DNA from: a virus
Lineage: Duplodnaviria > Heunggongvirae > Uroviricota > Caudoviricetes
IMG/VR virus record: IMGVR_UViG_3300012983_000003
Location: 1 to 64,000 of that record
DNA length: 64,000 bases
Reading direction: 5' to 3' (one strand)
Every line of letters begins with the position of its first letter. Position 1 is the first letter of the stretch. The notes under the pieces were generated by a model. The model had not been told where the DNA came from. It did not search any database and was given only the letters and a program-made list of their open reading frames with translations. Of the stretch, positions 1-42,780 are shown one piece after another. The position numbers and the translations under genes were made by a program.

Positions 1-120
1 ACCGCCACACCGCACCGCAAACAAGGGCTTGTGAGTACCTTTGCGGTTAAGGGTGTAAGGCAACCGCCACACCGCACCGCAAACAAGGGCTTGTGAGTAC
101 CTTTGCGGTTAAGGGTGTAA
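1..120. repeat. Two perfect tandem copies of a 60-bp unit, each containing a 7-bp stem hairpin (ccgcaaa...tttgcgg)
   Basis: Positions 1-60 and 61-120 are identical by direct reading; each unit holds an internal inverted repeat. Confidence 0.9.
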
Positions 121-10379: not shown

Positions 10380-10389
10380 GGTGAGCTAA

Positions 10390-10917: not shown

Positions 10918-10934
10918 GAAGGGAGATAATGCCA

Positions 10935-11609
10935 ATGATGGATTTAAGTAAATCCTACGAGTTTTTCCAGCCTGAAAAGTATGACGGCAGAATTCACATC
11001 ATCGGATGTGGTTCGGTAGGCTCGACATTAGCAGAAAACCTCGCTCGTTGTGGGGTTACAAAAATGACACTTTGGGATTTCGATACAGTCGAAAGCCACA
11101 ACATTGTAAATCAGATGTTCTCTCAACAGCACATCGGTAAGTCCAAGGTTGAAGCACTTGCAGATATCTTGGTTGACATTAACCCCTACATCAAGGACGA
11201 GCTTGAGCTTCAGCCGAAAGGTTGGCAGGGCAAACTGCTTTCCGGCTATATCTTCCTTTGTGTTGATAGCATTGAACTTCGCAGAGCGTTTGTCGAAAAG
11301 CATATGGACAGTCCGTATGTAAAAGCGGTATTTGATTTCCGAACTCTCCTCGAAAGTGCTCAGCACTACGCAGCGGATTGGTCGGACTACAAGATGAAGC
11401 AGACGCTTCTCAACTCAATGCAGTTCTCCCACGAGGAAGCCGCAGAAGAAACTCCCGTTTCTGCTTGTGGTATCACTCTTGGTGTAGCAACTACCGTTCG
11501 CCTTGTGTGTGCACTTGGCGTAAACAACTTCATCAACTTTGTAAAAGGCAACGGGATAAAGAAATTCGTTATGATTGACGGGTTCCGCTTTATCTTGGAT
11601 GCGTTCTAA
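10935..11609 (+). CDS. Minimal E1-like ThiF/MoeB/HesA-family adenylyltransferase
   Basis: [20 protein letters not shown]...[14 protein letters not shown] is the Rossmann/E1 signature; no rhodanese domain or CxxC. Confidence 0.7.
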
Positions 11610-12157
11610 TGAAGACTCGTTATAATCTGCTTGGTCAAACTTTTGATAGGTTAAAAGTAATTGAAGAAGTTGAGCCCTATATAGAACCATCCGGTAAGAA
11701 ACGATACCGATGGAAATGTTTGTGCGAGTGTGGCAATGAAACCATTGTTACAACTTGCAACTTACGAACTGGGCACACCCGAAGTTGTGGATGTCTGGAA
11801 GAGGAAGCTATATCAAGGATTTCTCACGACCCAAACATTCGCAGCAAAATTGCAAAGGCAAAAGTGAGACACGGACAATCTCATAGCAGATTATACGGGG
11901 TTTGGAACGCAATGAAACAACGGTGTCAAAACCCTAATAACGAAAAATATGCTTTGTATGGTGGTCGAGGGATAACCGTTTGTGAAGAATGGTTATCTTT
12001 CGACAATTTTTATGAATGGGCTATGCAAAGCGGATACGATGCTAACGCCCAGTATAGTGATTGCACTATCGATAGAATAGACCCGAACGGAAATTACGAA
12101 CCGTCAAACTGTCGATGGGCTAACGCTAAAACCCAAGCAAACAACAGACGAAACTAA
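11609..12157 (+). CDS. Putative HNH-family homing endonuclease (phage HNH with [11 protein letters not shown]...[12 protein letters not shown] module)
   Basis: Motif typical of phage HNH/AP2-type homing endonucleases; N-terminal Cys cluster. Confidence 0.6.
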
Positions 12158-12167
12158 TTTTAATTTA

Positions 12168-12481
12168 ATTTAACTGTAATGTTATCTGTTTCTTCCCCGA
12201 AGAAATGGCTTCTTACTGTTAGTGGAAGTAACAACTTGAGCAGAGCACGATACAGACAACCAGCAAAAACAGAGAAAGAAGACAGCGTTCCGATAAGCTT
12301 TTGTTTAATCATAAACCCATCTATTTGTCAAGTGTTTTCTACATTTATTTCTACGAAAGCATTGCGTTGCAACTCTTTCCCTAATTATTTTGCCAAGAAT
12401 TTGACCTGTTTTTCGAGTCTCAAGACACTTGTTTTAACGCGTTTAAAACAATCGTATTTCTATATTAGATTACAGTTAAAT
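12168..12481 (+). ncRNA. Candidate retron-like non-coding RNA (msr/msd-like) bounded by 13-nt inverted repeats
   Basis: atttaactgtaat (12168-12180) and attacagttaaat (12469-12481) form a perfect inverted repeat ending 22 nt before the RT start; internal hairpins; the 12179-12499 ORF is not credible. Confidence 0.5.
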
Positions 12482-12503
12482 CAATACGAACGGAGGTAAA
12501 TGA

Positions 12504-13874
12504 ATGTATTACATCACTGTTATGCAATCACCGATGTATCATCAGATGACTTTGGAAGAATTTTTGTTTGAAACAGAAAGTCGTCCGCAACTCATTAACC
12601 CCAATATGACCAACACTCGTACATACGAGGTTGAGAGTATCAGCGATAAGTTCTTGGAGCGTATTGATGTTGCAAAGTTAATCACGGCATTGGTGCAGTT
12701 CAATGAGGCTTTTGAGTCAGTACACAATCAGCCTCGCGAAAGCCTTTACAACACTTTCTATACCGAAAAGAAAGGTAAAGGTATGCCTTATGTATTCAAG
12801 AAAATGTTTGAAATTCAGAAGTCTTATGTCGAGTGCGACAGCTCTGCGGTTTGCAAAGAGGTTGGCACTACTTTAAGACAGATGTTAAGTCAGCACTCTA
12901 CCGATACCGATGCGGCTATTACCAAAACCGCAGTTGACCATTGTGTTAAGTATCTCACCGAGAACGGCTTTACTATCACATCTGAACAGCTTACTTCTAT
13001 CGTCAAGGAAGCATATCGTAGAATTGATGCTCCCAAGGACGAGTTATCCAACGCATTAAGACAGCTCAAGACTATCTTTGAGGAAAGATTTAATGCGTTA
13101 TATCACACCTCGGCTTTCGCCTATGTCAAGCGCCGTAGCACTTTGGATGCGGTTAAGCGTCATCAGGCAAACGAAAGCAAGTGGTTTGGTAAGTATGACT
13201 TATCGAACTTCTTTGGAAGCACAACCGTTGAATTCGTTATGAAGATGTTTTCAATGGTCTTCCCGTTCTCTGAGGTTGTGAAAGAACCCGTCGGTAAGAA
13301 CGCGCTCGAAACTGCAATTTCCCTTTGTATGTTAAACGGCGGTCTTCCGCAGGGTACTCCCATTTCCCCGCTGATTACTAACATTATGATGATACCTGTT
13401 GACTTTAAGTTAGCCAACGGTCTCAGAGATTTTAATAATCAGCGTTACATTTACACCAGATACGCGGATGACTTCCTCGTTTCTTCTAAATATGACTTTA
13501 AGTTCAGAGAAATCGAACAGTTCATCGTTGATACTTTGGCAAGTTTCGATGCTCCGTTCACCATTAAAGCCGAGAAGACTCGATACGGTTCTTCCGCTGG
13601 TTCTAATTGGAACCTCGGTGTAATGCTCAACAAGGATAATAACATCACTGTTGGGTATGAAAAGAAACGCAAGTTCCAAGCGATGCTCGCATCCTATGTG
13701 AAAGACCGTCAGAACGGTAATCCTTGGGATTTATCCGACATTCGCATTATGGAAGGTTATCGCAACTACTACAGAATGGTCGAGGGTGAAACCATCGACA
13801 AGTTAGTAGCGCACGTCGGCAATAAACTCGGCGTGGATATTGTTGAGCTTATCAAGGAAGACTTGAGAGCATAA
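12504..13874 (+). CDS. Reverse transcriptase, retron/Abi-like (not DGR type), with ~200-aa N-terminal extension
   Basis: RT motifs FAYVKRRSTLDAVKRH, KYDLSNFFGST, GLPQGTPISPLITNIMM, RYADDFLVSS. Confidence 0.85.
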   Translation: MYYITVMQSPMYHQMTLEEFLFETESRPQLINPNMTNTRTYEVESISDKFLERIDVAKLITALVQFNEAFESVHNQPRESLYNTFYTEKKGKGMPYVFKKMFEIQKSYVECDSSAVCKEVGTTLRQMLSQHSTDTDAAITKTAVDHCVKYLTENGFTITSEQLTSIVKEAYRRIDAPKDELSNALRQLKTIFEERFNALYHTSAFAYVKRRSTLDAVKRHQANESKWFGKYDLSNFFGSTTVEFVMKMFSMVFPFSEVVKEPVGKNALETAISLCMLNGGLPQGTPISPLITNIMMIPVDFKLANGLRDFNNQRYIYTRYADDFLVSSKYDFKFREIEQFIVDTLASFDAPFTIKAEKTRYGSSAGSNWNLGVMLNKDNNITVGYEKKRKFQAMLASYVKDRQNGNPWDLSDIRIMEGYRNYYRMVEGETIDKLVAHVGNKLGVDIVELIKEDLRA

Positions 13875-14517
13875 AGTTTCCAGTAATGTTATGACCAAGA
13901 TTTTATATTTTGGAGCTTCTCACTTTTAGTGGAAGTAACACGATGGCAAGAGGAAAACCAGAGATGACCCAGATGCAGACGGCTGCCTCTTCGTCTAATT
14001 TAGACGCCGGCATCCACTGTTCACATTCCGCCATCAGCAAAACCGTTGCATTGCAACGGTAAGGTAATCAGAAACCTTGCTGGTTTCCGGATACTTAGTA
14101 CCGCGGGCTCTCCTCCAGTAACGGTATTTCTGTAATAGATTACGGAAACGAAATTAAATCCATTAAGAACCCTGTTTGTGATGTATTGTATTCCTTTGAA
14201 TACACTTCTCGCTCTTAGCAGAAGTTTCATCTTGACGAGAACAGGACGGTGAGGAACTGGGAGTAAGACGACTGAAGTCGGAACCCTCCACGGGTTAATT
14301 TTCAGAGATTTCGTCATCAGTTGACATAATAACTGTCGGGAAATGGTTGCGTTGCAACCCAGCCCAATCCGAATTCCAAATCCGAACTGCTGTTTAACCA
14401 TCAAGTTAGCTTCCATCTCAGACATCTTTCAGGATTAGCGCTGCGGCTATTCTAATGTGGATTACATTCAGAGTTCTTATTGGATAAACCAAACTTAGAT
14501 TTTATTAACGAAAGCAG
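13875..14517 (+). ncRNA. Structured non-coding island downstream of the RT (hairpin-element copies, GTTGC-N3-GCAAC hairpins)
   Basis: 643 nt without credible ORF; several perfect stems (14043-14059, 14345-14359, 14204-14224). Confidence 0.4.
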
Positions 14518-14754
14518 GTGTATATTATGACCGTTTTTGATAGGTTTATGGAATTAACAAAAGAATTCACAGATATACACGATGCTTTCAAAGAATTATA
14601 TAACGAAATATGTAGGTTAAACCCAGACGATTTTGATAAAGCGTTATCCGATTTCGTAGACCTATATCACTCTGGTGATATATCCACACAACCTATCGTT
14701 GAAGAAAGTAGTCAAGAATTAAATCAGTTTCTTGCTGGATTTGAGGTGTCATAA
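14518..14754 (+). CDS. Hypothetical small protein
   Basis: ORF with RBS. Confidence 0.4.
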   Translation: MYIMTVFDRFMELTKEFTDIHDAFKELYNEICRLNPDDFDKALSDFVDLYHSGDISTQPIVEESSQELNQFLAGFEVS

Positions 14755-14984
14755 TGAATTGCTACACTTTCGATGAATTTATTGAGCAGGTGTATAAACC
14801 TCGTGATTATTGCAAGAGATTTGCAGTGATAGACCTTTACGAAACGCTAATGCAATACAATCGCGGAGTAATACTTTCTATTGATGGTGAGGAATTTAAG
14901 GTTGTTCCGCATAGTCAAGAGGTTGTTAAGGAATGTAGTCCAGAAATGAATGACTTTATAAATTGTTTTGCACAGGTGGTGTGA
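14754..14984 (+). CDS. Hypothetical small protein
   Basis: ORF, translationally coupled. Confidence 0.4.
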   Translation: MNCYTFDEFIEQVYKPRDYCKRFAVIDLYETLMQYNRGVILSIDGEEFKVVPHSQEVVKECSPEMNDFINCFAQVV

Positions 14985-14987
14985 TGA

Positions 14988-15248
14988 ATGAATATCGCTA
15001 AATTATGTGAGTTGCTTAACTTTATCAAAGTTAATAATTCGTGGGGTACTGATATGTATTACATCAACCACGAAAGAAATCGCAAATCAATTAAGTATGT
15101 GGATTTCTGCTTCGATAGTAGAGACGGTAGTATATGGTACATCAAATGCCGTGCTGTTACTGGAGAACCAGATAAGGAATTTCGCATAGAAAACCAAAAG
15201 GATTTGGATAAGTTTTACGAGTGGCTTAATGAGCCTTTGAATAAATAA
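14988..15248 (+). CDS. Hypothetical small protein
   Basis: ORF. Confidence 0.4.
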   Translation: MNIAKLCELLNFIKVNNSWGTDMYYINHERNRKSIKYVDFCFDSRDGSIWYIKCRAVTGEPDKEFRIENQKDLDKFYEWLNEPLNK

Positions 15249-15288
15249 ATTCAGGATGGTTTTTGTCTTTTAAGGACTATCCAATTAG

Positions 15289-15318
15289 CCGTTGTGTTGC
15301 AACGGGTTTTAAAAAATT
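15289..15318 (+). terminator. Stem-loop ccgttg..caacgg followed by ttttaaaaaa
   Basis: Hairpin plus T-run. Confidence 0.5.
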
Positions 15319-15353
15319 CTACAACCTAAGTGGTTGTAAAACGGAAAGGAGTG

Positions 15354-16172
15354 GTTGTTTTGACGAACAGAGAAGTTGCGAATAAGTTGTTCGACTATAT
15401 TCGTAAGAATTCTAAATTTGACCCGTATGATATTGAGTACGGAGATACATATTTCGTCTTTACCGGCGACCCAGATAGTGTAATTCACTTTCGAGTAAAA
15501 GGTGTCAGTAAACAATGGAAGTTTGGTATGTGGGTACACGCTGAATTCCTTGGCGACAGCGAACACTCCGAAGACCCCGTTATTCAGTTCTTCGCCCAGT
15601 GGGAAAAGGATATTGATAAGTTCAAGCCATCACGAAGCGATATTTGTGTAAAAATAACCGCACAACAGTTTGCCGAAGATGTCGATAACGATGGTTGGAT
15701 GTATTACGATATTATGCACGCACTTGATATGATGAGAAATCACCCTATTCTCTGTTATTGCGGAATTTGTGGAGAAGATGGTTATGGATATACAAGCATC
15801 AAGAGCTTCACTTGGTATTTTATCAAGGGCGAATTTTATCATTTCAAAAAGGCAGTCTCGAAAGCATTGATGACTGCAATTTTCCTGCCGATTTGCAAAT
15901 TCAAGGTATGGAGAGCAAATCGCCACAAGTGTGTAGAACTATGCGAGATATATAATTTCGAGAAACGGAACCCCGGATGGTCTACATCACACGATTACTG
16001 TATCGAGTGTAATTTTAAAGAGTCGGCTACCGATGAAGAAATGTATAAGGTGGCTCGCATCTTTAAGAGACAAAGATATGGTAAGTATGGTTGTTTCCAG
16101 AGAGTCGCAGAGATTGACTGCTATACTCAAACAGGTAGAGACGGTTGTTTTGGATTTTCGTTTGATGATTGA
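15354..16172 (+). CDS. Hypothetical Cys-rich protein (start uncertain, TTG or GTG)
   Basis: ORF with AAAGGAG RBS; multiple CxxC motifs. Confidence 0.45.
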   Translation, partial: VVLTNREVANKLFDYIRKNSKFDPYDIEYGDTYFVFTGDPDSVIHFRVKGVSKQWKFGMWVHAEFLGDSEHSEDPVIQFFAQWEKDIDKFKPSRSDICVKITAQQFAEDVDNDGWMYYDIMHALDMMRNHPILCYCGICGEDGYGYTSIKSFTWYFIKGEFYHFKKAVSKALMTAIFLPICKFKVWRANRHKCVELCEIYNFEKRNPGWSTSHDYCIECNFKESATDEEMYKVARIFKRQRYGKYGCFQRVAEIDCYTQTGRDGCFGFSFDD

Positions 16173-16183
16173 GGTGAATAATT

Positions 16184-16483
16184 TTGAGATTTCATATAGA
16201 ACAGTATCCCGGCAAGTATGTTATGCACTGTAAAACCGAAGAAGAAGCACAAATCTTCTTAGAGTTTTTATCAAGCATCGGTAGGACTTGGTGTGATGGT
16301 AAGAGTTATCTTGAAAACCTTAATTATAATTACGAAGGTCAGACAGCTTATGCTTTTAACGAAGGTAGATATGGAAGAACCGACAGACAACCCGAACTTG
16401 GTTTCAAGGTCATAAACTTTGATGATTTCGACTGGGACGACGATATCACCCCCCTCGAGCCGCGACCTTCAGCGTCTCGATAA
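16184..16483 (+). CDS. Hypothetical protein
   Basis: ORF. Confidence 0.4.
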   Translation: MRFHIEQYPGKYVMHCKTEEEAQIFLEFLSSIGRTWCDGKSYLENLNYNYEGQTAYAFNEGRYGRTDRQPELGFKVINFDDFDWDDDITPLEPRPSASR

Positions 16484-16673
16484 TTTCTTTGCACAGTTTG
16501 CTGTTAATAAGCTATAAACGCTCTAATACCAGAGCTTTATAAAACCTCCCGAAAGTGCGCCGGCATACTACAAATCGGTATTGAGTTGTAGGTAAGAAAC
16601 GACAGGTAATGAGCCGACCTATCTGGAGCGCAGCCAGACAACGAAAGTTGGTCGAAACCGCGGGAGTATATAT

Positions 16674-16758
16674 GCGGATATGCTGGAATTGGCAGACAGG
16701 CACGTTTGAGGGGCGTGTGCTGAATAGCGTGTGGGTTCAAGTCCCACTATCCGCACCA
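16674..16758 (+). tRNA. tRNA-like gene, type II (long variable arm), with apparent 9-nt anticodon loop tttgagggg (TGA core; Ser-like?)
   Basis: Acceptor gcggata/tatccgc, T-arm gtggg-ttcaagt-cccac, encoded CCA; anticodon arm non-canonical. Confidence 0.5.
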
Positions 16759-17229
16759 CTTAATTAGTCAGAAATGGCTAATTAACCACTTAGAAATCGG
16801 TTAATATGTCAAGTTTGACTAATTAACCAAATCTCCTCATTTTGATATTGGTGCTACGAAGCGCTCACTGATTATGTGATTTGAAAGTCAGTAGTTGAAA
16901 CAGACTGTAAGCGGCAGAACGCAGTAGTAAATGGAGTTTGATGAACAGCCAATGTCTATAACGCATAAGGGTCTGCGGATGTCATAGACTTATGCGGCAA
17001 CGAAAGTTGTAACAGACCGTTTAATAAACGCCATTGACATCAAAACGGGAGCAAATTCCAACCTTTAGTATTTTTGAGGTTAAGATGTGCGGCTGACTGA
17101 CCTAAGAGCTCATAGTTTTATTGCCGAGGTTTGTTGTTTTCCCTCGGCATCTCCTTTCTTTAACGAGCCCATCGTGGTTGTTTTATGGTGGGCTCGTTTT
17201 CTAAAAATCTAATCAGGAGGTAAACGGCA

Positions 17230-17955
17230 ATGTCAGTAATTTGTCCTCATTGCAATAGTAGTTTTGAGTTGATGCCTATGGAAGAAATCATCAACCCTAC
17301 ATTAACAATTTCTCGCAAAATCAAAGAGCGTAGTTCTTGGGAAGAAATTGCTGATGTTATCAATCGCGGTGAAGCACGCAGATTGTTTGACATTGGTGAC
17401 TCTATCTCCTGTACGCTTAAAAATGGTAAAGATGTGAACTTCATCATTACCGCAATCAACCCATACCAACCTAATCAGGTGGCTTTTGAGTTTGCAGACC
17501 TGCTCCCTGATACAAAGGTTATGAACAATCGTAACACTAACCGTGGCGGTTGGGCAATGTCAGCGATGAAAGAGTATATGAAAGAAGTATTTGCTCTACT
17601 TCCTGACGATTTACAGAAAGTAATTGTTCCCAGAAAGATTACCCAGAAGTTAAGCGACGGTTCACAGAATTCTTCTGAAGATAACTATTTGTGGCTTCGT
17701 TCAATGACTGAGAGTGGTCGAAAGTATGAGGCTGATATTGACGACGTACCTTTCCCTTTCTTTACTGGAGAGAAAAGTCGAGTTAAAGAACTTGAGGGTA
17801 ATGGAACATATTACTATTGGTTGCGTTCGCCTTATATTGGTAGCACCACTTACTTCTGGTATGTTTACGACAGTGGTAACGTCAGCCACTACAACGCCAA
17901 CACCTCGGGTGGCGTTTGCCCCTGCTTCTTTATCGGTGGGGAGCCTAACGCATAG
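17230..17955 (+). CDS. Hypothetical protein with N-terminal zinc ribbon
   Basis: CPHCNSSF...; AGGAGG RBS. Confidence 0.45.
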   Translation: MSVICPHCNSSFELMPMEEIINPTLTISRKIKERSSWEEIADVINRGEARRLFDIGDSISCTLKNGKDVNFIITAINPYQPNQVAFEFADLLPDTKVMNNRNTNRGGWAMSAMKEYMKEVFALLPDDLQKVIVPRKITQKLSDGSQNSSEDNYLWLRSMTESGRKYEADIDDVPFPFFTGEKSRVKELEGNGTYYYWLRSPYIGSTTYFWYVYDSGNVSHYNANTSGGVCPCFFIGGEPNA

Positions 17956-18012
17956 TTTCGCGTAGCCATAATAATTATCTGGCGGCTTGCCCGCCAAGAG
18001 CTTAGGAGAATA

Positions 18013-18378
18013 ATGATGAAGAAAATAATTGCAACAATCATCTTAGTGCTTATGCTTGTGTTATGCCTTAGCGGTTGCGGTAAAGAAACTAAAGATGTAG
18101 TAACAACATACGACATTGTGATGGGAAAATACACATCTTTTGTTGATGGTGTTTTTGATAAAGAGTTAGAAGAAACTCTTGAGATTACCTATATCGATAA
18201 AGACGGTAAGTATGTTACCGATAGTATCGACCCGTCATTCCGACTTGATTTCGGCGACGAAAACAAAGTGCTGTTTACTAACGAAGACAGTTTTTGGGGA
18301 TATAAAGATTATGTCCTAACCAAAGAAGCATATAACAAAATCGTTTCTTCTTCGCCGATGGTTGTAGATATCGAATAA
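18013..18378 (+). CDS. Putative lipoprotein (lipobox LSGC)
   Basis: MMKKIIATIILVLMLVLCLSGCGKE. Confidence 0.5.
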   Translation: MMKKIIATIILVLMLVLCLSGCGKETKDVVTTYDIVMGKYTSFVDGVFDKELEETLEITYIDKDGKYVTDSIDPSFRLDFGDENKVLFTNEDSFWGYKDYVLTKEAYNKIVSSSPMVVDIE

Positions 18379-18379
18379 T

Positions 18380-19100
18380 AAATGTTTAAAACGGTGCGGT
18401 TTTTATGAAACTGTCAAATGTCCATCAAAGAGGAAAGCAGCCGTCAGCGTCCCCGTATGTAGATTGATTGAATGATACTTTTACACTTTTGTTATACATA
18501 AATCAGCCAATCACTTCTTGCTGTCAGCAGAAGTTCCAATTTGTAAGTTACGCTCTATTCGTTAGAAATAATTAGCCTTCCGTGCGATGCTTCGACATCG
18601 CACTTCCGCTATTTATTTCTAACCACCGACTGAAAATAGCCTACTTTTAAAAGTTGCGCAGGGCGCTCCTTTTAAAAGCATCAATTTTCAGCGGTGCCGA
18701 GCGACGCTACGGCATTTGCTTGGGCTACCTCAAGCTTGACGCCCATAGCAAACGGATACGGGGACAAAATCTGATATTTCAGCGCGACTATATAAGTATT
18801 CTCTGCAATATGAGATAACTTTGAACCGCGCTTTAATATACCCACAATGTAGATTGATTATCTTTCTTTTGAATTTTATTCGTTATACATAAACGATAAT
18901 CGCTTCTTACTGACAGTAGAAGTTGCGAAATGTTAGAGGTTCCTCGCGTGTCTCATCAACGAGATGTCACACGAGGCTTATTGCGCACGAGGCGCAAACA
19001 GCCACGAGTAACATCCCTATGATGAGACTACTAATCTCGCTCTCGCTCGTGCATAGATTTAACTCTTCACCGAAGAGTAAATCTACAGGATTGTGGGTAA
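18380..19100 (+). other. Structured non-coding island: two copies of the tgtagattgatt / gttatacataaa / hairpin module, nested inverted repeats
   Basis: No credible ORF; IR gttagaaataa/ttatttctaac around the gtgcgatg..catcgcac stem; palindromic cttttaaaag x2. Confidence 0.4.
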
Positions 19101-19108
19101 TAATATAT

Positions 19109-19184
19109 GCCTATGTAGCTCAGATGGATATGAGCAGCCACGCACAGAGTGGTATGCCGTGGGTTCGAGTCCCACTATAGGCGA
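19109..19184 (+). tRNA. tRNA-like gene with unusual anticodon loop gcacaga (anticodon ACA?; C at position 33)
   Basis: Acceptor, D, T (gtggg-ttcgagt-cccac) arms fold; anticodon stem gccac/gtggt. Confidence 0.5.
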
Positions 19185-19244
19185 TAACGCTTAAGGCGGA
19201 AGTACAACGACCTAAGCTGACACTCGGGAAAGACCGGGGTGCAC

Positions 19245-19320
19245 GCTGGTGTAGCTCAGTTGGTAGAGCACGTGATTTGTAATCTCGGGGTCGCAGGTTC
19301 GAGTCCTGTCTCCAGCTCCA
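19245..19320 (+). tRNA. tRNA-Thr (anticodon TGT), CCA encoded
   Basis: gtagctcagttggtagagc D-arm, loop tttgtaa, T-arm gcagg-ttcgagt-cctgt. Confidence 0.7.
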
Positions 19321-19345
19321 AAATAAACAATAAGTGGGTGAAACA

Positions 19346-19813
19346 ATGATTAAACACATTAAGGGCGATATTTTTCAGAGCAACGCAGATGTAATTCTCC
19401 ACCAAGTAAATTGCCAAGGCGTAATGGGTAGCGGAGTTGCAAAGCAGGTACGCGAGAAATATCCGTGGGTTTTCGGTTACTACAAACATCTTTGCGATGA
19501 CGCAAAGAAACTTCCAAACGGGACAAAATCCTTGCTCGGTGTCTCGCAGTTCATATTCATTGACGAAACGAGACAAATCGGTAATCTGTTTGCCCAAGAC
19601 CGTTTTGGATACGATGGTAAGTGCTACTCTGACTATGAAGCATTAAAGAAATGCTTGACATATGTCAAGTTGAAGTTTGATGGCAAAAAGATTGCCATTC
19701 CGTATTTAATGGCTTGTCACAGAGGCGGCGGAGATTGGAATACGGTTTATAAAATCATTGAAGAAACACTCGCTGGTTGCGATGTTACTTTATACGAATA
19801 CAACGGAGGTTGA
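19346..19813 (+). CDS. Macro-domain protein (ADP-ribose binding/processing)
   Basis: GDIFQSNADVILHQVNCQGVMGSGVA is the macro-domain signature. Confidence 0.75.
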   Translation: MIKHIKGDIFQSNADVILHQVNCQGVMGSGVAKQVREKYPWVFGYYKHLCDDAKKLPNGTKSLLGVSQFIFIDETRQIGNLFAQDRFGYDGKCYSDYEALKKCLTYVKLKFDGKKIAIPYLMACHRGGGDWNTVYKIIEETLAGCDVTLYEYNGG

Positions 19814-19815
19814 GT

Positions 19816-20349
19816 ATGAAAACGCTGATTGTTATTGATATGCAGAATGACTTTGTTACCGGTGCTCTCGGTTCCAAAGAAGCAGTTGCAATTCTGCCCA
19901 ATGTAAAGAAGAAAATTGAAGAGTATGTTGCCGCAGGTGACGAGGTAATTTTCACTCGTGATACTCACGGCGAACAGTATCTCGAAACTAATGAGGGTAA
20001 ACATCTCCCTGTTCCTCACTGTATTAAGAATACAGAGGGTTGGAATGTTGTTCCCGAGATTGATATTCCCGACCGCGAACATATTGATAAGCCCACATTC
20101 GGTTATACAGGCTGGACTTTCTTGCGTGACGGCGACAGAGTGATGGGAATGAGAAACCTCACCGATGTAGAAATCATTGGTGTTTGCACAGATATTTGTG
20201 TGGTTTCCAACGCTCTTATCCTTAAGGCTTTCTATCCTGAAATCAACATTACGGTTGATGCAAGTTGCTGTGCCGGTGTAACACCCGAGTCACATCAGGC
20301 AGCATTAGCGACTATGAAGTCTTGCCAAATCAATGTAATCGGAGAGTGA
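19816..20349 (+). CDS. pncA: Isochorismatase-family nicotinamidase (PncA-like)
   Basis: LIVIDMQNDF start; isochorismatase-fold pattern. Confidence 0.65.
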   Translation: MKTLIVIDMQNDFVTGALGSKEAVAILPNVKKKIEEYVAAGDEVIFTRDTHGEQYLETNEGKHLPVPHCIKNTEGWNVVPEIDIPDREHIDKPTFGYTGWTFLRDGDRVMGMRNLTDVEIIGVCTDICVVSNALILKAFYPEINITVDASCCAGVTPESHQAALATMKSCQINVIGE

Positions 20350-20353
20350 TTAA

Positions 20354-21151
20354 ATGATTAAACTCAATGGTACACCCGTTGAAATTAACAAATTTCCCGA
20401 CGGCACACTTTTAATGAAGCAGGAATACAGTGAAGCACAGCTCGATGTAATCGACTGGAGATTTCAGAACAACGAAGAGCTTGTCGCGTTGTATTTCTTA
20501 ACTAATCATCTTCGTGATAGTGGTGCAAAAAATATCGAGTTAAGAATGTGGTATATCCCTAACGCAAGACAGGACAGGGTTAAAAAGTCTGAAGATATTT
20601 TCACCCTGAAATACTTTGCAAAGTTTATCAACTCATTAAAATTCAACAAAGTTCGTGTGTTAGACCCTCACTCCTCTGTATCGGGAGCGCTGTTTGATAA
20701 TCTTCACGAGGGTAAGCCCGAGTTCCTCATTGCCGAGGTTTATGACAGAGTTTCCGAAATTGTGGGTAGCGAAGAGACAATTATGTTCTATCCAGACGAG
20801 GGCGCTATGAAGCGTTACTCTGGTATGATTTCTAAGCCGTATGCGTTTGGTATCAAGGAACGCGACTGGTCTTCGGGTCAAATTAGAGGTCTCTCTGTCT
20901 TTGGAGAAGATATTGTTAAGGGTCGCAACATTTTGATTGTTGATGATATTAGCAGTAGAGGTGGTACATTCTACCATAGCGCCAAGAAGCTTAAAGAACT
21001 TGGAGCAGAAAGAATTTTCCTCTTTGTAAGCCATTGCGAAAACACAATCCTTGAGGGTGAGGTTTTGTCCAGTGGTTTGATTGAAAGAGTTTATACAACC
21101 GACAGTCTGTTTACAGCAGAACACGAGAAAATTGAGGTGATTGAAATATGA
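20354..21151 (+). CDS. Ribose-phosphate pyrophosphokinase (Prs)-family enzyme; possibly an ADP-ribose pyrophosphokinase of an NAD-reconstitution pathway
   Basis: YIPNARQDR, VRVLDPHSS and ILIVDDISSRGGT align with Prs motifs. Confidence 0.65.
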   Translation: MIKLNGTPVEINKFPDGTLLMKQEYSEAQLDVIDWRFQNNEELVALYFLTNHLRDSGAKNIELRMWYIPNARQDRVKKSEDIFTLKYFAKFINSLKFNKVRVLDPHSSVSGALFDNLHEGKPEFLIAEVYDRVSEIVGSEETIMFYPDEGAMKRYSGMISKPYAFGIKERDWSSGQIRGLSVFGEDIVKGRNILIVDDISSRGGTFYHSAKKLKELGAERIFLFVSHCENTILEGEVLSSGLIERVYTTDSLFTAEHEKIEVIEI

Positions 21152-22629
21152 GAACAAATCCTATGCTTTTGATTGACTTCTATAAAGCAGTTCACGCTGA
21201 AATGCTCCCAAAGGGCATCACGAAGTCTGTATCTTATTACACCCCTCGAATGAGTCGTGTTAAACGCTGGGATAAGGTTGTTATGTTCGGTTTACAGGGC
21301 TTTATTAAGACTTATCTCATTGATTATTTCAATGAGTATTTCTTCAAGAGACCGTTTGCCGATGTGATGTTTGAGTACAAAAGAGTTATGGATGCTTCGC
21401 TTGGCGAGGACACCTATAATATCGGTAAGATTATCAATCTTCATAAACTTGGATATCTTCCTATCGAAATCGTGGCTCTTCCCGAGGGTACAAGAGTGCC
21501 TATCCACTGCCCGATGTTCGGTATTACCAATACTCACCCCGATTTTGCTTGGCTCCCACAGGCTCTTGAGAGTTTAATCTCCGCTGAGACTTGGCATCCC
21601 CAACTCGCCGCAACAGTCGGTTACACCTACCGCGAAATCGTAAATCATTATTATGATTTAACTTGTGACGACAATATTCCGAGAGCAAGAGCTCTTGGTG
21701 CTTTTGACTTCCGCGGTGAAGAGTGTCTTGAGTCTGCTGTTAAGGCTGGTGCTGGTTGGTGTTTATCTTTCTTAAATACCGCCACCGTGCCTGTAATTCC
21801 TTACCTTGAACAGAACTACAACTGTGATTGCACTAAGGAACCCGTGGCTTTCGGTAGTCCGAGCACAGAGCACTCTGTTATGTGCAGTAACTATGCGGTT
21901 GACGGTGATGAAATCACCCTGTTAAGACGCTTACTTACTGAGATTTATCCCAACACAAACTTTTCCGCCGTTCTTGACTCTTATGACTACTGGAACATCA
22001 TTGACAATGTTCTTCCGCAGTTAAAGAAAGAGATTATGGAACACAACGGTTGTATGCTTATGCGTGGCGACTCTGGAGATTGCGTTGAGGTTGTTACCAA
22101 GACTGTTTTCAAGCTTTGGGAACACTTCGGCGGCACTATCAACAGTAAGGGTTATAAGGTTCTTGACCCGCACGTCAAGGCTATTTACGGCGATAGCATT
22201 ACCGTTCAGAGATGCGAAGAAATCTATAAGATTTTAATGGAGAACGGCTTTGCTTGTTCCAATGTTGCTCTCGGTGTTGGTTCGTTCTCGTTCCAGTGTA
22301 TCGAGGAAGACGGCGAACTCAAGCCTTTTACAAGAGATACATTCAGTTCTTGTATTAAGGCAACTTACTGCGAGATTGACGGTAAGCCTACCCCGATTTT
22401 CAAGAACCCCAAAGACGGCGGTTTCAAGAAGTCGCAGAAAGGTTGCTGTGTTGTGGTAGCACGAGGCGATAGTTTTGATTTCGTTGACGGAAGAACTTGG
22501 GACGAAGCCCACGGCTCTGGAAAGAGTGCTGATGTTAACGCACTTAAAACAGTGTTTAAGGACGGCAAGATTGTTAAGGAACAGTCTTTGGCAGAAATCA
22601 GAAAAGTATTACACGGAGGCGAGTTTTAA
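21148..22629 (+). CDS. nadV: Nicotinamide phosphoribosyltransferase (NAMPT/NadV) family enzyme
   Basis: LLIDFYKAVH, LPIEIVALPEG, FDFRGEE, MRGDSGD, KGYKVLDPHVKAIYGDSI match NAMPT. Confidence 0.8.
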   Translation: MRTNPMLLIDFYKAVHAEMLPKGITKSVSYYTPRMSRVKRWDKVVMFGLQGFIKTYLIDYFNEYFFKRPFADVMFEYKRVMDASLGEDTYNIGKIINLHKLGYLPIEIVALPEGTRVPIHCPMFGITNTHPDFAWLPQALESLISAETWHPQLAATVGYTYREIVNHYYDLTCDDNIPRARALGAFDFRGEECLESAVKAGAGWCLSFLNTATVPVIPYLEQNYNCDCTKEPVAFGSPSTEHSVMCSNYAVDGDEITLLRRLLTEIYPNTNFSAVLDSYDYWNIIDNVLPQLKKEIMEHNGCMLMRGDSGDCVEVVTKTVFKLWEHFGGTINSKGYKVLDPHVKAIYGDSITVQRCEEIYKILMENGFACSNVALGVGSFSFQCIEEDGELKPFTRDTFSSCIKATYCEIDGKPTPIFKNPKDGGFKKSQKGCCVVVARGDSFDFVDGRTWDEAHGSGKSADVNALKTVFKDGKIVKEQSLAEIRKVLHGGEF

Positions 22630-22631
22630 TA

Positions 22632-23021
22632 ATGAAAGTATTTTTAGGTGGAACTTGCAGCGGATACAAGTGGCGTGATGATTTAGAGCCAATGCTTAAC
22701 TGTGATTATTATAATCCAATAGTTAAAAATTGGTCTGAAGCCGATAGGCTTAGAGAGGTTCACGAGAGAGAAACTGCGGATTATGTTCTGTATGTTATCA
22801 CATCTGGTATGAAAGGTGTATATTCTATTGCTGAAATCATTGACGACTCAAATAAGCGCCCCGAGAAAACTATCGTTTGTGTTTTATACGATGGTATTGA
22901 CGAGCAGATGTCAAAAAGCCTTAAAGCTACTTTAAATCTTGCTCAGTCAAACGGTGCTACCGTTTTGAACTCATTAAACGATATAGCTGAATTCTTAAAT
23001 AGGATGTGCAGTAATGTTTAA
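22632..23021 (+). CDS. Nucleoside 2-deoxyribosyltransferase-like protein
   Basis: KVFLGGTCSG... resembles the N-deoxyribosyltransferase fold start; weak. Confidence 0.4.
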   Translation: MKVFLGGTCSGYKWRDDLEPMLNCDYYNPIVKNWSEADRLREVHERETADYVLYVITSGMKGVYSIAEIIDDSNKRPEKTIVCVLYDGIDEQMSKSLKATLNLAQSNGATVLNSLNDIAEFLNRMCSNV

Positions 23022-23745
23022 TGCAAAGAAAGTAACTCAGGACTGTATTCAGTGGATAAGAGACTGGTTTGAGGTTAATGGTCAAGGTTGTAACGCTGTC
23101 ATCGGCATCTCGGGTGGTAAGGACAGTTCGGTCGTAGCCGCACTGTGTGTCGAAGCACTTGGTAAAGATAGAGTTTTCGGCGTGTTAATGCCAAACGGCG
23201 AGCAGGCTGATATTGACAGTGCTTATGCCTTGGTAAATTACTTAGAAATTAACAGCACAGTCGTGAATATTCAGGACGCTTATTACGGTGTTATCAACAA
23301 CATTGATTTGCCTCTTATTTCCAACCAGACCAAGATTAACTTACCTTGCAGACTCCGTATGTCAGTTCTTTATGCGGTGTCTCAAAGCATTAACGGTAGA
23401 GTTGCCAACACTTGCAACCTCTCGGAAGACTGGATTGGTTACTCCACTCGCTACGGAGACTCCGTTGGTGACTTCAGTCCATTAAGTGACTTAACAGTTA
23501 CCGAGGTTCGAGCAATCGGACACGCTCTTGGTTTACCCGCCGAGCTTGTTGATAAGGTTCCTACGGATGGTTTGTGTGGTGCTACAGACGAAGACCACTT
23601 CGGCTTTACATACGAGGTCTTGGATAAATATATTAGAACTCGTGAGATTGACGATGAAGACACTCAAAATCGCATAGATGAACTTCATCGCAAAAACTTG
23701 TTTAAATTACAACCTATGCCCAAGTTTCATTATAAAGGGTGGTGA
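23014..23745 (+). CDS. nadE: NH3-dependent NAD+ synthetase (NadE), PP-loop ATPase
   Basis: GISGGKDSSVVAALC PP-loop. Confidence 0.75.
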   Translation: MFNAKKVTQDCIQWIRDWFEVNGQGCNAVIGISGGKDSSVVAALCVEALGKDRVFGVLMPNGEQADIDSAYALVNYLEINSTVVNIQDAYYGVINNIDLPLISNQTKINLPCRLRMSVLYAVSQSINGRVANTCNLSEDWIGYSTRYGDSVGDFSPLSDLTVTEVRAIGHALGLPAELVDKVPTDGLCGATDEDHFGFTYEVLDKYIRTREIDDEDTQNRIDELHRKNLFKLQPMPKFHYKGW

Positions 23746-23750
23746 GAACG

Positions 23751-24065
23751 ATGTTTGAAATTAAAAAGGTTAAGAACTACCGACAGTTCGCAGAGCTTCT
23801 CGAAAAAGAAACTGGCTGTAGTATTCTCGTGCGTCCTATGACCAAAGACGGCGAACACACTCATTATCAGATGAATGACAGGTTTGGTATGAGCCTTGGC
23901 GTCCTATGTGTTGACGATGGGTATGCTTCTTTTGCTCCATTTGAAACCTTAGAGTCTGCTGAAAACAATCAATATATTAACATCAACCATTTAACACAGA
24001 CCGAAGACTTTATCAAGGTAATGTCTGTGCTTGGTAAGATTTTTGTAACAGATAATAACGAATAA
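23751..24065 (+). CDS. Hypothetical protein
   Basis: ORF. Confidence 0.4.
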   Translation: MFEIKKVKNYRQFAELLEKETGCSILVRPMTKDGEHTHYQMNDRFGMSLGVLCVDDGYASFAPFETLESAENNQYININHLTQTEDFIKVMSVLGKIFVTDNNE

Positions 24066-24079
24066 GGAGAGTGATAAAT

Positions 24080-25360
24080 ATGGGATATACAGATATTTTA
24101 GTTCTGCAAGCCATTACCGGTGCAAATGATAAGCAAAAGTTTATCAAAGACCACGCTGGTGATGAAAACTTCAGGAACTTCCTGTATTACGCTCTTAATC
24201 CTTTGCTCTCATACAATCTTTCCGAAGCAACTTTGCGAAAGGAAGATACTTCGGTTCCGAATACAGGATACCGTCCCTTTAAAGACATCTTCGAGTGTTG
24301 CGAATACCTCTCCAGATTGCGTGGGTTGGATGATGCAACTGTAAGGCAGATAAAGATGTTCTTATATGCAACACCCGAGGATGCTCGGGAGTTATACATA
24401 AAACTCCTTTCTAAAACCTTGCGTCTTGGTGTAACAGCCAAGACGGTTAATAAGGTTATTCCAAACTTAATTCCTGAGTGGGAAATTCAGCAGGCTTACC
24501 CGATTGAAAAGTACCCGATTAAGAAAGGCACTTACTTCTGGTTGAGTCAAAAACTCAACGGTACAAGAGCGACATATTACAACGGTAAGTTAGTTGCTCG
24601 TAGCGGTAGTGCTTATACAGGTCTCGACCATATCACTGAAGAGTTGAAATGGACAGAGGGACGAGGAATTGTTTTGGATGGCGAACTCACTTTGAAAGAT
24701 GAGTTCCGCGAGGGTCTCTCAGACAACGAAGCTTTCCGTAAAGCAACAGGTATTATTAACAGCGATGAAAGTGTGAATAAAACGATGATTTGCTTCACAG
24801 TTTTTGATGTAATTCCTGTTTCTGATTTCGAGAGCCCAAAACCCTCAGTCAACTACTCAGCCCGTAGGGGACTGTTAGACAATCTCTCAGAGCTTCTCCC
24901 GAAAGACGGCTCTGTTAAAATATTGCCCACGCTTTATCACGGAACTGACTTATCCAAAATAGATGAGTTGCTTAACCAGATGGTTGCCGAAGATAAAGAA
25001 GGGCTGATGGCTAATCTCGATGTTCCGTATAGACGAACCCGTCATAACGGCATCTTAAAAATCAAGAGGTTCTATACAATGGACTTGCCTATTATTCGTG
25101 TGGAAGCAGGAACTGGCAGACTTGATGGGACTCTTGGTGCTTTTGTACTCCAATACGAAAACAATGAGGTAAAGGTTGGTTCTGGTTTTACAGACGGACA
25201 ACGAGCTGAATACTGGGCTAACCGCGACGCTCTCGTCGGTACATTGTGTGAGGTTAAGTACAAAGAAGTTTCCAGTGATAAGAAAACTGGATTAAAGAGT
25301 TTGCAATTCCCTGTGTTTGTTCGTTTAAGAGACGATAAAACAGAGGTTAGTTACGGTTAA
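24080..25360 (+). CDS. ATP-dependent DNA (or RNA) ligase, nucleotidyltransferase superfamily
   Basis: Motif I variant KLNGTR; C-terminal OB motif VI FPVFVRLRDDK. Confidence 0.65.
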   Translation: MGYTDILVLQAITGANDKQKFIKDHAGDENFRNFLYYALNPLLSYNLSEATLRKEDTSVPNTGYRPFKDIFECCEYLSRLRGLDDATVRQIKMFLYATPEDARELYIKLLSKTLRLGVTAKTVNKVIPNLIPEWEIQQAYPIEKYPIKKGTYFWLSQKLNGTRATYYNGKLVARSGSAYTGLDHITEELKWTEGRGIVLDGELTLKDEFREGLSDNEAFRKATGIINSDESVNKTMICFTVFDVIPVSDFESPKPSVNYSARRGLLDNLSELLPKDGSVKILPTLYHGTDLSKIDELLNQMVAEDKEGLMANLDVPYRRTRHNGILKIKRFYTMDLPIIRVEAGTGRLDGTLGAFVLQYENNEVKVGSGFTDGQRAEYWANRDALVGTLCEVKYKEVSSDKKTGLKSLQFPVFVRLRDDKTEVSYG

Positions 25361-25379
25361 CGGTAAGGAGATGATTTAT

Positions 25380-25766
25380 ATGTCGGATAAACCACAGTTT
25401 TCGGTTTGCCTAAGTAATTTTCTAAATCTAATTACGGAAGCACAGAGAGATTACCAGTGGAATTACGACGAAGTAAATCGTCTCGACCGCTTAACTCAGG
25501 ATTATTTACACCAACTCGAACTCGATGGTCTTGATTACAGAGGCAGAGCGAAAGTTGCTACGCAAATTAAAGATTGTCGTCAACTTCGCAGGGCTTCAAA
25601 AGATACAGTTGAGGTCTTAGAGCCACTGATGGAATTTATCAATAGCGATAAGGGTAAAAACTTATTAAACCTATTGAGAGAAACCCTTGGCAAGACCAGA
25701 CGAGCCGAGCAATATATGGAAACCCGCAGTTATAGACGCAGGGTTCTCCAAGACGACGAAACATAA
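25380..25766 (+). CDS. Hypothetical protein
   Basis: ORF with AAGGAG RBS. Confidence 0.4.
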   Translation: MSDKPQFSVCLSNFLNLITEAQRDYQWNYDEVNRLDRLTQDYLHQLELDGLDYRGRAKVATQIKDCRQLRRASKDTVEVLEPLMEFINSDKGKNLLNLLRETLGKTRRAEQYMETRSYRRRVLQDDET

Positions 25767-25789
25767 ATTCCTGTAATGAAAATCGTCAT

Positions 25790-26090
25790 TTCTGGCTGAA
25801 AAAGCAATTTAAGGAAATGAAGCTTCTTGCTGATAGCAGAAGTAACTCTTTGTCAAGAGGAAGAATGTGCAGCAGGCGATGAGCGAGCCCTGCAATGCAG
25901 GTGATTGCCGGGTAGTTACAGGGGAAACTTCGACGGTAGCACGGAGGAAGCGTTGCATTGCAACATCTCATCCTCCATTGCCCACCCCTGTCTCCTGAGC
26001 TGTCCACTCCTGCGTCAGGAAAGATGAAGGCGAACCTTCACCTCCTTCCTATATGAGATTACAGGTAATAACTTTTAGGTGGTGATACAT
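25790..26090 (+). other. Structured non-coding island (hairpin-element copy at 25822-25842, GTTGCATTGCAAC at 25942-25954, ctgcaatgcag palindrome)
   Basis: No credible ORF; shared motifs. Confidence 0.4.
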
Positions 26091-26092
26091 AA

Positions 26093-26452
26093 ATGGCAAA
26101 ACAAATCACAGATATGGAAACTTGGTTATTGGATAACGAAGGTAGAATATTTCGTTATGTGATATACCGAAGAATGTTCACTCCATACGAGCAAGAACGC
26201 GCTTTTTCAGACGAGTCACAATACGAAGATTATCACTTCACTTTTGGATTTATTGAAGAAGCAATCGACCTTGGCGGTGGTGAATGGTTACTTGGGTTCC
26301 GCAAAATTATCGACGGAGAAACATCTGATGAGATTGAATATTGTAGATTGAGCGAAATCCGACTGTCGTGTTTTGATTGCGACCAAGATATGTTCACCGA
26401 AAAGGATGATGAGGAGGGTGATTACGAATGGCTGACGCAGACAGATGCGTAA
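26093..26452 (+). CDS. Hypothetical protein
   Basis: ORF with RBS. Confidence 0.4.
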   Translation: MAKQITDMETWLLDNEGRIFRYVIYRRMFTPYEQERAFSDESQYEDYHFTFGFIEEAIDLGGGEWLLGFRKIIDGETSDEIEYCRLSEIRLSCFDCDQDMFTEKDDEEGDYEWLTQTDA

Positions 26453-26676
26453 TGTGTGGAGAAATAATCACCGAGGGATATGGTCACACTTGCTACAAAT
26501 GCAATAATAAGCCGTTCCCAACCAAAACCAACCTGTATGATACCATTTGTGGTAAATTAACGGATTTTGAACACTGCAATGATAAAGAAACTACGGATGC
26601 CGATTGGCTACAGGAGTTCTATCATTTGCTTATTCGTATTCAAAACGCATTTGAGTGCGGAGAAATTACAATTTAA
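26428..26676 (+). CDS. Hypothetical Cys-rich small protein
   Basis: CVMCGE...CYKC. Confidence 0.35.
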   Translation: MADADRCVMCGEIITEGYGHTCYKCNNKPFPTKTNLYDTICGKLTDFEHCNDKETTDADWLQEFYHLLIRIQNAFECGEITI

Positions 26677-27102
26677 TATCTTGCCCGGTTGAGAAAACAT
26701 ACCACGGCTTTAGCGGCGGTCGGGCTCCAAGGCGTCAACGCCTTCCTCCTTTGTGCGTTGATGGGCGTTAAAGAAAAAGAGTAAGGTCGTGTCATAACGA
26801 CTGAAATGACATTTCGAGTTCTTTAACTTAATATTCGGGTTTGTTAAGTTAATGGTGTCTCTCAAACAGAGATATACCTGTGTGTTTCTGCGGAACACCT
26901 GTGTCAATGTCGAGGGATGTTTTTGACTCCTACATCCGAAGTCCTTGGTACAACGAGATGGGAAACACTTATCCCCCTGCTCTATTAAAACAGATGAAAT
27001 AGAATTCCGGTGTAAAGGCATAGGAGTGAGTCTGAGAGTGGAGTCGCTATTATGACAAAATAGGCAAACAAAATAATTTGAAGTCTAAGGAGATATGATT
27101 TA

Positions 27103-42713: not shown

Positions 42714-42744
42714 AATTGCCCTCCATAAAAATTTCTCTTTGGGT

Positions 42745-42780
42745 GTTGACATCTGAGGAGTTTTATGTTACCATTAGACC
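42745..42780 (+). promoter_or_regulatory. Candidate rightward promoter (TTGACA - 17 - TACCAT)
   Basis: -35 match at 42745-42750. Confidence 0.35.

Follow-up and report, generated by a model that had tools for sequence, protein, structure and literature searches.

The 64,000-nt stretch of DNA analyzed here (the window; positions 1 to 64,000 of the IMG/VR record IMGVR_UViG_3300012983_000003, a virus of the Caudoviricetes) raises the question of what is encoded by a 21-nt hairpin, termed P2 below, that recurs six times on the plus strand around and beyond a reverse transcriptase (RT) gene. The original prediction, made from the sequence alone, had left three alternatives, namely a promoter with a 5′ stem-loop, an RNA-processing signal, and a protein/RT recognition hairpin, and the last of these is the best-supported reading. 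P2 is one module of a noncoding RNA unit of about 260-315 nt, of which the window contains six. By analogy with described retrons, P2 is probably the conserved msr-part stem-loop, and the RT-recognition element, of a phage retron that has multiplied its template RNA.

Pattern scanning of the window placed the plus-strand P2 copies at 12209-12229 (CTTCTTACTGTTAGTGGAAGT), 13916-13936 (CTTCTCACTTTTAGTGGAAGT), 14205-14225 (CTTCTCGCTCTTAGCAGAAGT), 18514-18534 (CTTCTTGCTGTCAGCAGAAGT), 18903-18923 (CTTCTTACTGACAGTAGAAGT), and 25823-25843 (CTTCTTGCTGATAGCAGAAGT). Four of these starts are exactly those first given, and the remaining two, at 14205 and 25823, had been placed one position off, at 14204 and 25822. 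The six copies are real, since CTTCTNNCNNTTAGNNGAAGT with up to two mismatches has seven matches in the window versus 0.11 expected from shuffles. The seventh match (39822) lies within an aminotransferase gene, is devoid of any flanking feature of the family, and is missed by the P2 covariance model, which found only the six copies within the 64 kb with its filters off; the covariance-model check proposed with the prediction was thereby carried out on the window. On the other hand, the consensus proposed at first, CTTCTYRCTG-loop-CAGYRGAAGT, is 25 nt as written and has no match even with two mismatches. It is replaced by the 21-nt element CTTCTYRCT-NNN-AGYRGAAGT, each copy of which folds into 5 bp, one bulged Y, 3 bp, and a 3-nt loop (8-9 bp with a bulge), and the “5-nt loops” described previously consist of the 3-nt loop and its closing T-A pair.

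Positions 7/15 of P2 are occupied by G-C or A-T and pair 5/16 by a U.G wobble, so that both the G:C to A:T covariation noticed between the copies at 18514 and 18903 and the T.G wobble hold. Across the 50 distinct family copies, in an alignment that is itself fitted to the model, 450 of 450 cells pair (100%) and both partners have changed in 5 of the 9 pairs, a level that 0 of 500 shuffles attain; the original claim of a conserved RNA structure that covaries and tolerates G.U pairs is upheld. Pair 5-16 is U.G in 33 of 43 distinct copies. Together with P1, a hairpin just upstream, P2 is more stable on the plus than on the minus strand in 42 of the 43 (Wilcoxon p = 1.3e-8), because the U.G pairs turn into C.A mismatches on the minus strand. 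The P1+P2 structure belongs to the sense strand, as RNA rather than as duplex DNA. All six copies sit between convincing genes. Four open reading frames overlap the P2 regions (12179-12499; 14021-14425, minus strand; 18923-19180; 25786-26007, minus strand), one of which also overlaps a tRNA, and none of them is called in relatives except for one 42-aa minus-strand call in L050/L051, in agreement with the noncoding islands first described. The accompanying tail and upstream boxes are also present as claimed, with GAAGTAAC directly 3′ of three P2 copies, GTAATGTTAT 34 nt 5′ of the copies at 12209 and 13916, and TGTAGATTGATT and GTTATACATAAA upstream of those at 18514 and 18903.

The hairpin copies had been recognized correctly, and what had been missed was the variable hairpin P1, the long-range closing helix, and the retron type of the RT. 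Each unit is composed, in order, of a 5′ arm (8-18 nt), an invariant G, 3-7 unpaired nt, P1, P2, a body, a G, and a 3′ arm. The GTAATG “box” ends in the invariant G, 3-7 nt before P1. In the aligned family copies, P1 is a hairpin of 5-10 bp that occurs in 42 distinct sequences, all of which pair; it is separated from P2 by 0-2 nt, and P2 is followed by T-WWC-N3-4-TG. As a pure inference, the distal limit of the template may be marked by the conserved TG of this motif, which lies 8-9 nt beyond P2. The body is a structured, fast-evolving segment of 166-239 nt. In all six units of the window, the 5′ arm finds its complement 166-239 nt downstream of P2, unconstrained minimum free energy (MFE) folding closes the unit by the end helix, and a G precedes the 3′ arm; this G, which played no part in the search for that arm, appears as AG in about 30 of 42 family instances.

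The closing helix was examined over 45 family instances with a test anchored on the invariant G, in which a complement of at least 8 was found for 58% of cognate versus 5.7% of non-cognate pairs (Mann-Whitney p = 3e-8); an earlier duplex test using long flanks was uninformative, and the anchored test took its place. The arm pairs vary between copies yet stay complementary (TCTATGCAAT/ATTGCATAGA, CAAACTATAAC/GTTATAGTTTG, CATGTAGT/ACTACATG, and GTCCCCGTAT/ATACGGGGAC), and variants of the box (GCAATG, GTAGTG, ATAACG, and CCGTATG) are accompanied by matching changes in the partner. Whole-unit folding gave z-scores from -2.5 to -9.3. The box is a strand of a covarying long-range helix, and the hairpin is therefore an internal module of the unit rather than a free-standing signal.

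All six units lie on the plus strand. Unit 1 (type A; 12168-12481) is located directly upstream of the RT gene, with its 5′ arm at 12168-12180 (ATTTAACTGTAAT), the proposed branch G at 12181, P1 at 12186-12195/12199-12208, the body at 12230-12468 following P2, the opposing G at 12468, and the 3′ arm at 12469-12481 (ATTACAGTTAAAT); its arms are perfectly complementary over 13 bp, which 0 of 200 shuffles reach. Unit 2 (type A; 13876-14149) begins 2 nt past the RT stop codon and comprises a 5′ arm at 13876-13887 (GTTTCCAGTAAT), the G at 13888, P1 at 13895-13901/13907-13913, a body at 13937-14138 with the opposing G at 14138, and a 3′ arm at 14139-14149 (ATTACGGAAAC), the arms forming 11 bp with one bulged A. 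Unit 3 (type A; 14165-14478) follows 15 nt after unit 2. Its 5′ arm (14165-14182, AAGAAC...TGTGAT), G (14183), P1 (14187-14193/14198-14204), body (14226-14460, opposing G at 14460), and 3′ arm (14461-14478, ATTACA...GTTCTT) are closed by a helix in two parts, UGUGAU/AUUACA with one G.U pair and AAGAAC/GUUCUU.

Unit 4 (type B with a long P1; 18449-18765) consists of a 5′ arm at 18449-18458 (GTCCCCGTAT), the G at 18459, P1 at 18465-18470/18508-18513, which encloses a 37-nt loop containing TTATACATAAA, a body at 18535-18755 with the opposing G at 18755, and a 3′ arm at 18756-18765 (ATACGGGGAC); the arms are perfectly complementary over 10 bp, and the z-score of the whole unit is -9.3. Unit 5 (type B; 18839-19099) has its 5′ arm at 18839-18848 (TACCCACAAT), the G at 18849, P1 at 18856-18862/18895-18901, the body at 18924-19089 with the opposing G at 19089, and the 3′ arm at 19090-19099 (ATTGTGGGTA). 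The perfect 10-bp complementarity of its arms is reached by 2 of 200 shuffles, and the whole-unit z-score is -6.9. Unit 6 (type A with a long P1; 25770-26065) contains a 5′ arm at 25770-25777 (CCTGTAAT), the G at 25778, P1 at 25786-25792/25814-25820, a body at 25844-26057 with the opposing G at 26057, and a 3′ arm at 26058-26065 (ATTACAGG), the arms forming 8 bp and the consensus AG preceding the 3′ arm.

The bodies diverge so rapidly that their alignment between orthologues, made for covariation of an msd hairpin, failed already at 82% RT identity. The alignable exception is an internal, covarying hairpin, GTTGY-NNN-RCAAC. Its form GTTGC-NTT-GCAAC is present in the bodies of units 1, 2, 3, and 6 (12361-12373, 14045-14057, 14346-14358, and 25952-25964) and has seven matches on both strands of the window versus 0.28 expected; the orthologue variants GTTGT-CCC-ACAAC and GTTGC-AGG-GCAAC covary, and a similar hairpin at 15291-15303, with a T-run after it, is terminator-like. 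The six bodies of the window and those of 27 relatives are A/C-rich on the sense strand with C > G; the genome-wide skew is G > C. In 26 of 27 cases, folding is better for the complement of the body, which corresponds to the cDNA sense; shuffled sequences shift equally, the shift is hence compositional, and it is not counted as evidence for a cDNA structure. No consistent stop-free frame was found in the bodies, and no Rfam match at the gathering threshold overlaps the six units. At E <= 10, the Rfam matches that overlap the units within 11500-27500 are all far below their gathering scores and are limited to Enterococcus-1 (minus strand, 18931-19013; 21 bits versus a gathering score of 71.4) and to minus-strand matches to Plastid-ycf2 and YrlA, which lie mostly over tRNAs.

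The sole RT gene of the window (12504-13874, plus strand) encodes a protein that, as judged from its sequence and predicted fold, is of the retron type. It matches the Pfam family RVT_1 (E = 3.6e-17), and all 25 of the PADLOC matches listed are retron RT models, the best being RT_II-A with 127.5 bits. Its best sequence matches in the PDB are the retron RTs Ec83, Ec78, and Ec86, and the seven best Foldseek matches of its AlphaFold2 (AF2) model, with a predicted local distance difference test (pLDDT) value of 82, are all retron RTs. The protein carries an N-terminal domain of about 165 aa that belongs to no family recognized in Pfam. The 3′ arm of unit 1 ends 22 nt before the ATG of the RT gene at 12504, which is the canonical msr-msd-RT order. 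Units 2 and 3 come directly after the RT gene and units 4-6 are located 4.6-12 kb away from it, a non-canonical arrangement.

In exact-pattern scans, the P2 family was found in uncultivated gut viral contigs of 65-125 kb; contigs that were binned together with Roseburia, Ruminococcus, and other Clostridia contain it as well. Among cultured phages, those of Clostridioides and Bacillus have the closest relatives of the DnaE-type polymerase of the window. Searching with the RT protein gave thousands of matches at E <= 1e-10, the closest of which are on contigs of 115-190 kb. Among relatives whose RTs are 60-91% identical, the layout of one unit before the RT gene, one or two after it, and more beyond recurs; a copy in the position of unit 2 is present in L048, L049, L050, L051, L052, L053, L055, and L056, and type B copies are kept in L004, L015, L019, L026, L052, L055, and L056. 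The number of copies in related phages ranges from 1 to at least 5 per locus. In L058, the RT of which is 72% identical, both P2 copies carry the compensatory change CTTTT...AAAAG. A phage contig with a more distant RT (MT835544.1, 42% identical) has a unit of matching layout directly upstream of the RT gene, with a 13-bp closing helix (AAAAAATTGTGAT followed by G, and AG followed by ATCACGATTTTTT), a small P1, and a P2 of the form CACTC-A-GG/CC-GAGTG (CACTCAGG...CCGAGTG), which differs in sequence from the P2 of the window but has its shape, with 5 bp, a bulge, and 2 bp; this unit is the single copy within 15 kb. The sequence of P2 tracks the RT lineage and therefore behaves as expected of a recognition element. 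The many-copy state is an expansion to 3-6 units within one phage clade. In L055 (RT 91% identical), a gene for a 300-aa protein (9373-10275) is inserted between the RT stop codon and the unit corresponding to unit 2, which marks the junction of RT and unit as a place where genes are gained or lost.

By analogy with characterized retrons, a possible course of events can be proposed for the phage system. The units would be transcribed from the plus strand, probably inside long rightward transcripts, and the end helix would set the invariant G opposite the G preceding the 3′ arm. The single phage RT may recognize P2 and perhaps also the helix junction. It could then prime on the 2′-OH of the invariant G and copy the body backwards from the 3′ arm, and up to six different branched RNA-DNA molecules (multicopy single-stranded DNAs, msDNAs) could result. 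Speculatively, the phage may use these products as decoys, regulators, or exclusion factors. The full proposal, in which one viral RT reverse-transcribes an array of 3-6 templates with a shared recognition hairpin into distinct msDNAs for the purposes of the phage, is put forward tentatively, as it falls somewhat short of being probable; such purposes might be decoys against DNA-sensing or retron-type defences of the host, regulators, or superinfection exclusion.

The ncRNA (noncoding RNA) of retrons is described as having complementary ends, 1-3 short stem-loops (3-10 bp) in the msr, a branching G that is conserved, and an msd of a single or double long hairpin (PMC8632793; PMC7736814), and the consensus ncRNA of type I-A/II-A retrons contains “two opposing G residues” (PMC7736814). 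Complementary ends, short msr stem-loops (two per unit, P1 and P2), and opposing G residues are retron features that are present here. The window thus resembles bacterial retrons, represented by Retron-Eco1/Ec86 and the type I-A/II-A consensus, in an RT of the retron group, an ncRNA immediately upstream of it, complementary RNA ends, the opposing G pair, 1-3 msr stem-loops, and a variable, structured template region. In contrast to the single ncRNA of those systems, six are found here for one RT, distributed over 14 kb, and the setting is a large phage with no recognizable effector instead of a defence island. Stand-alone (msr-msd)-RT cassettes of RT clades 2 and 11 likewise consist of a retron RT and an ncRNA without an effector; by description they are set apart as bacterial, single (msr-msd)-RT units, unlike the six of the phage (PMC7736814).

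The nearest published hint is gp206 of the Staphylococcus aureus jumbo phage MarsHill, a retron-like RT of a phage with a Firmicute host for which no effector was found. It has an N-terminal domain of about 200 residues and 1.2 kb of upstream noncoding DNA, for which an ncRNA was only hypothesized (bioRxiv 10.1101/2020.12.14.422802); contrary to the units described here, the ncRNA of MarsHill was never defined. The MarsHill record is not among the tblastn matches to the RT of the window at E <= 1e-8, and any relationship is therefore distant. Another S. aureus phage, OR844994.1, was considered as a comparable system and dropped, as it has an ordinary RT of 338 aa and no comparable repeats. Engineered retron arrays (PMC10370050) are alike in that one RT acts in trans on ncRNAs with a common recognition part and differing templates; these arrays are synthetic, and the phage system would be their natural counterpart. 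Diversity-generating retroelements share with the window a phage-encoded RT and adjacent noncoding sequence. However, they possess a pair of template and variable repeats (TR/VR), which is absent here, as the units are unlike any other part of the window, and the RT fits retron models far better than the structures of diversity-generating retroelements; this candidate was rejected.

Several points weigh against a phage retron with several templates. Among the ten neighbouring proteins, no effector-type match was found with PADLOC or Pfam except for a ThiF/E1-like protein (10929-11609). About 75% of retrons have an effector protein or a fused effector domain; because stand-alone cassettes exist, an effector is not strictly defining for retrons. 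In the literature, no precedent was found for several templates per RT: the searches brought up neither a retron that naturally has more than one ncRNA nor a phage retron-like RT whose ncRNA has been defined. The bodies, at 166-239 nt, are long and in MFE folds apparently multi-branched, rather than the single or double long hairpin of the msd in bacterial retrons, and two of them (nc1 and nc3), when taken alone, show no significant structure (z = -1.0 and -0.6). Several relatives have an intrinsic terminator, consisting of a GC-rich hairpin and a T-run, that ends some 10 nt upstream of the 5′ arm in the unit preceding the RT (1808-1850 in L012; also in L033, L034, L037, and L042). The msDNA and its 2′-5′ branch at the invariant G are proposed by analogy with bacterial retrons, and it is possible that additional copies are bound by the RT but not reverse-transcribed. 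The signatures canonical for retrons, the VTG triplet in RT7 (region Y) and the NAXXH motif (region X), are lacking in the RT, which in the alignment with Ec83 and Ec78 reads NLG for VTG and AVKRH for NAKIH. Only the G of VTG and the H of NAXXH are kept, which are the most conserved residues of these two retron motifs (PMC7736814), and NLG (N370, L371, and G372) is invariant in 30 homologues; the strict retron motifs are therefore absent, though the homologous positions are conserved. In view of the unclear msd, the altered RT motifs, and the lack of a recognizable effector, the system is therefore regarded as retron-type but outside any described type.

The serious rival is RT-independent descent of the extra units. 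According to this explanation, the units would be structured RNAs of retron-RNA ancestry (small RNAs, protein sponges, or antitermination-type RNAs), unit 1 alone or none of them would be copied, and P2 would bind another protein of the phage or the host. It draws on the distance of units 4-6 from the RT (4.6-12 kb) and their position beside tRNAs and unrelated genes, on the degenerate signature motifs of the RT, and on the literature, from which no multi-template retron is known. However, all six units keep every priming element (the closing helix, the two G residues, P1, and P2), P2 changes along with the RT lineage, and the units near the RT and those distant from it have a common P2. RT-independent RNAs are accordingly considered unlikely, while still deserving the most attention among the alternatives.

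Less probable again is the promoter with a 5′ stem-loop or the RNase III-type signal, in which the box would act as a -10-like element and transcripts would have their 5′ ends stabilized or marked by the hairpins. The copies do lie in noncoding islands where blocks of genes or ncRNAs start, the terminators just upstream in L012, L033, L034, L037, and L042 give the typical order of terminator and then promoter, and GTAATGnnAT loosely resembles an extended -10 element. Nevertheless, -35/-10 sites of the sigma-70 type are not enriched (28 versus 33.2 expected), and none is consistently upstream of the copies; a terminator role was rejected along with the promoter for want of enrichment. The “tgtaatgttat” box is not a -10 element but the 3′-terminal part of a helix arm together with the invariant G; its covarying partner, 166-239 nt downstream, is not needed by a promoter, and where the box sequence varies (GCAATG, GTAGTG, ATAACG, and CCGTATG) the partner varies alongside. 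As for processing, the hairpin is an internal module of a unit of about 260-315 nt, and in our own assessment P1+P2 is too short and interrupted for a classical RNase III substrate. The two signal-type alternatives of the original prediction are thus not supported.

It is very improbable that the units are a miniature mobile element resembling a miniature inverted-repeat transposable element (MITE), bounded by terminal inverted repeats and dispersed through the phage genome. Such an element would fit six units of about 260-315 nt bounded by inverted repeats and a copy number from 1 to at least 5 per locus across related phages, but the terminal repeats differ between copies while being complementary within each, and G.U pairs are tolerated on the plus strand only; terminal arms that covary with G.U pairs therefore behave as an RNA helix and not as a transposase site. 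Furthermore, all copies have one orientation, their interiors cannot be aligned with each other, and from phage to phage they keep their places with respect to the RT. Hardly credible, finally, is a DNA-level hairpin, either a promoter of an N4-type virion RNA polymerase, since P2 with its 3-nt loop and short stem resembles N4 early promoters, which form on the template strand with a 3-nt loop and a short stem, or an extruded replication or recombination site, because the plus (non-template) strand is favoured in 42 of 43 copies, the window has no giant RNA polymerase gene, and the hairpin is embedded in a unit of about 300 nt closed by a long-range helix.

Other candidates were also rejected. 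Solitary repeats of the CRISPR/Cas12a type, suggested by a UCUACU-GUU-GUAGAU-like flavour and a “GTAGAT” box, do not agree with the conservation of the sequence that follows the hairpin, which is not spacer-like, nor with the identity of the “GTAGAT” box as an arm of a helix with the G attached. The flanking of the RT by copies also suggested integron attC-like cassettes, which were dropped on the same two grounds. A template for a DRT2-like “neo” gene is not compatible with bodies that have no consistent stop-free frame, and a small protein starting from the conserved ATG of GTAATG is not compatible with unit 2, where translation would stop after two codons.

The genes and RNAs around the units were also inspected. 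A gene block upstream of the RT (7895-12157) is conserved in L050-L058 and in all relatives examined; its members are proteins of about 490 aa and about 320 aa without Pfam, PHROG, or PADLOC matches, a protein of about 175 aa, and the ThiF/E1-like protein, after the gene of which the window has a gene for a 182-aa protein. Directly after unit 5, beginning at 19108, are a tRNA-Cys with the unusual anticodon ACA and a tRNA-Thr (19108-19320), and a weak match to the Y-RNA-like YrlA spans 19134-19297 (23.6 bits, far below the gathering score). A noncoding island of 750 nt (16484-17229) contains tRNA-Leu(gag) and several strong hairpins and lies outside the retron-type family; within it, only the tRNA reaches an Rfam gathering score. 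Between units 5 and 6, a cluster for NAD salvage and DNA repair (20354-25360) includes nicotinamide phosphoribosyltransferase (21148-22629) and an ATP-dependent DNA ligase (24071-25360), and the NAD cluster of relatives adds NAD synthase, isochorismatase, and ribose-phosphate pyrophosphokinase-like genes.

Further away, the phage encodes an RtcB RNA ligase (28008-29210). The noncoding stretch at the start of the window (1-540) begins with an exact 62-nt tandem duplication (1-123) and contains a clean match to RAGATH-16 of Rfam at 173-244 (79.2 bits versus a gathering score of 65.6), with several more hairpins downstream that precede TGAGTA-like motifs. An open reading frame of 277 aa (41919-42752) is the only long one on the minus strand without overlap with a plus-strand gene, and it coincides with the only negative GC skew of the window (42-44 kb).

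In the current understanding, a retron is a bacterial anti-phage system in which a single RT is combined with a single ncRNA and a single effector. The large gut phages of Clostridia described here, a widespread family, carry a retron-type RT without a recognizable effector, together with 3-6 units in which the template parts have diverged far more quickly than the enzyme. This accounts for several recurrent “noncoding islands” in these phage genomes. If the proposal is true, these phages would employ msDNA for their own ends, and the question would arise as to the role of msDNA without a toxin. The system would be the first natural multi-template retron and would place retron reverse transcription on the phage side of the conflict. 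It would also represent a natural system of one RT and many templates acting in trans, as has been built artificially for multiplex editing, with a defined 21-nt recognition hairpin.

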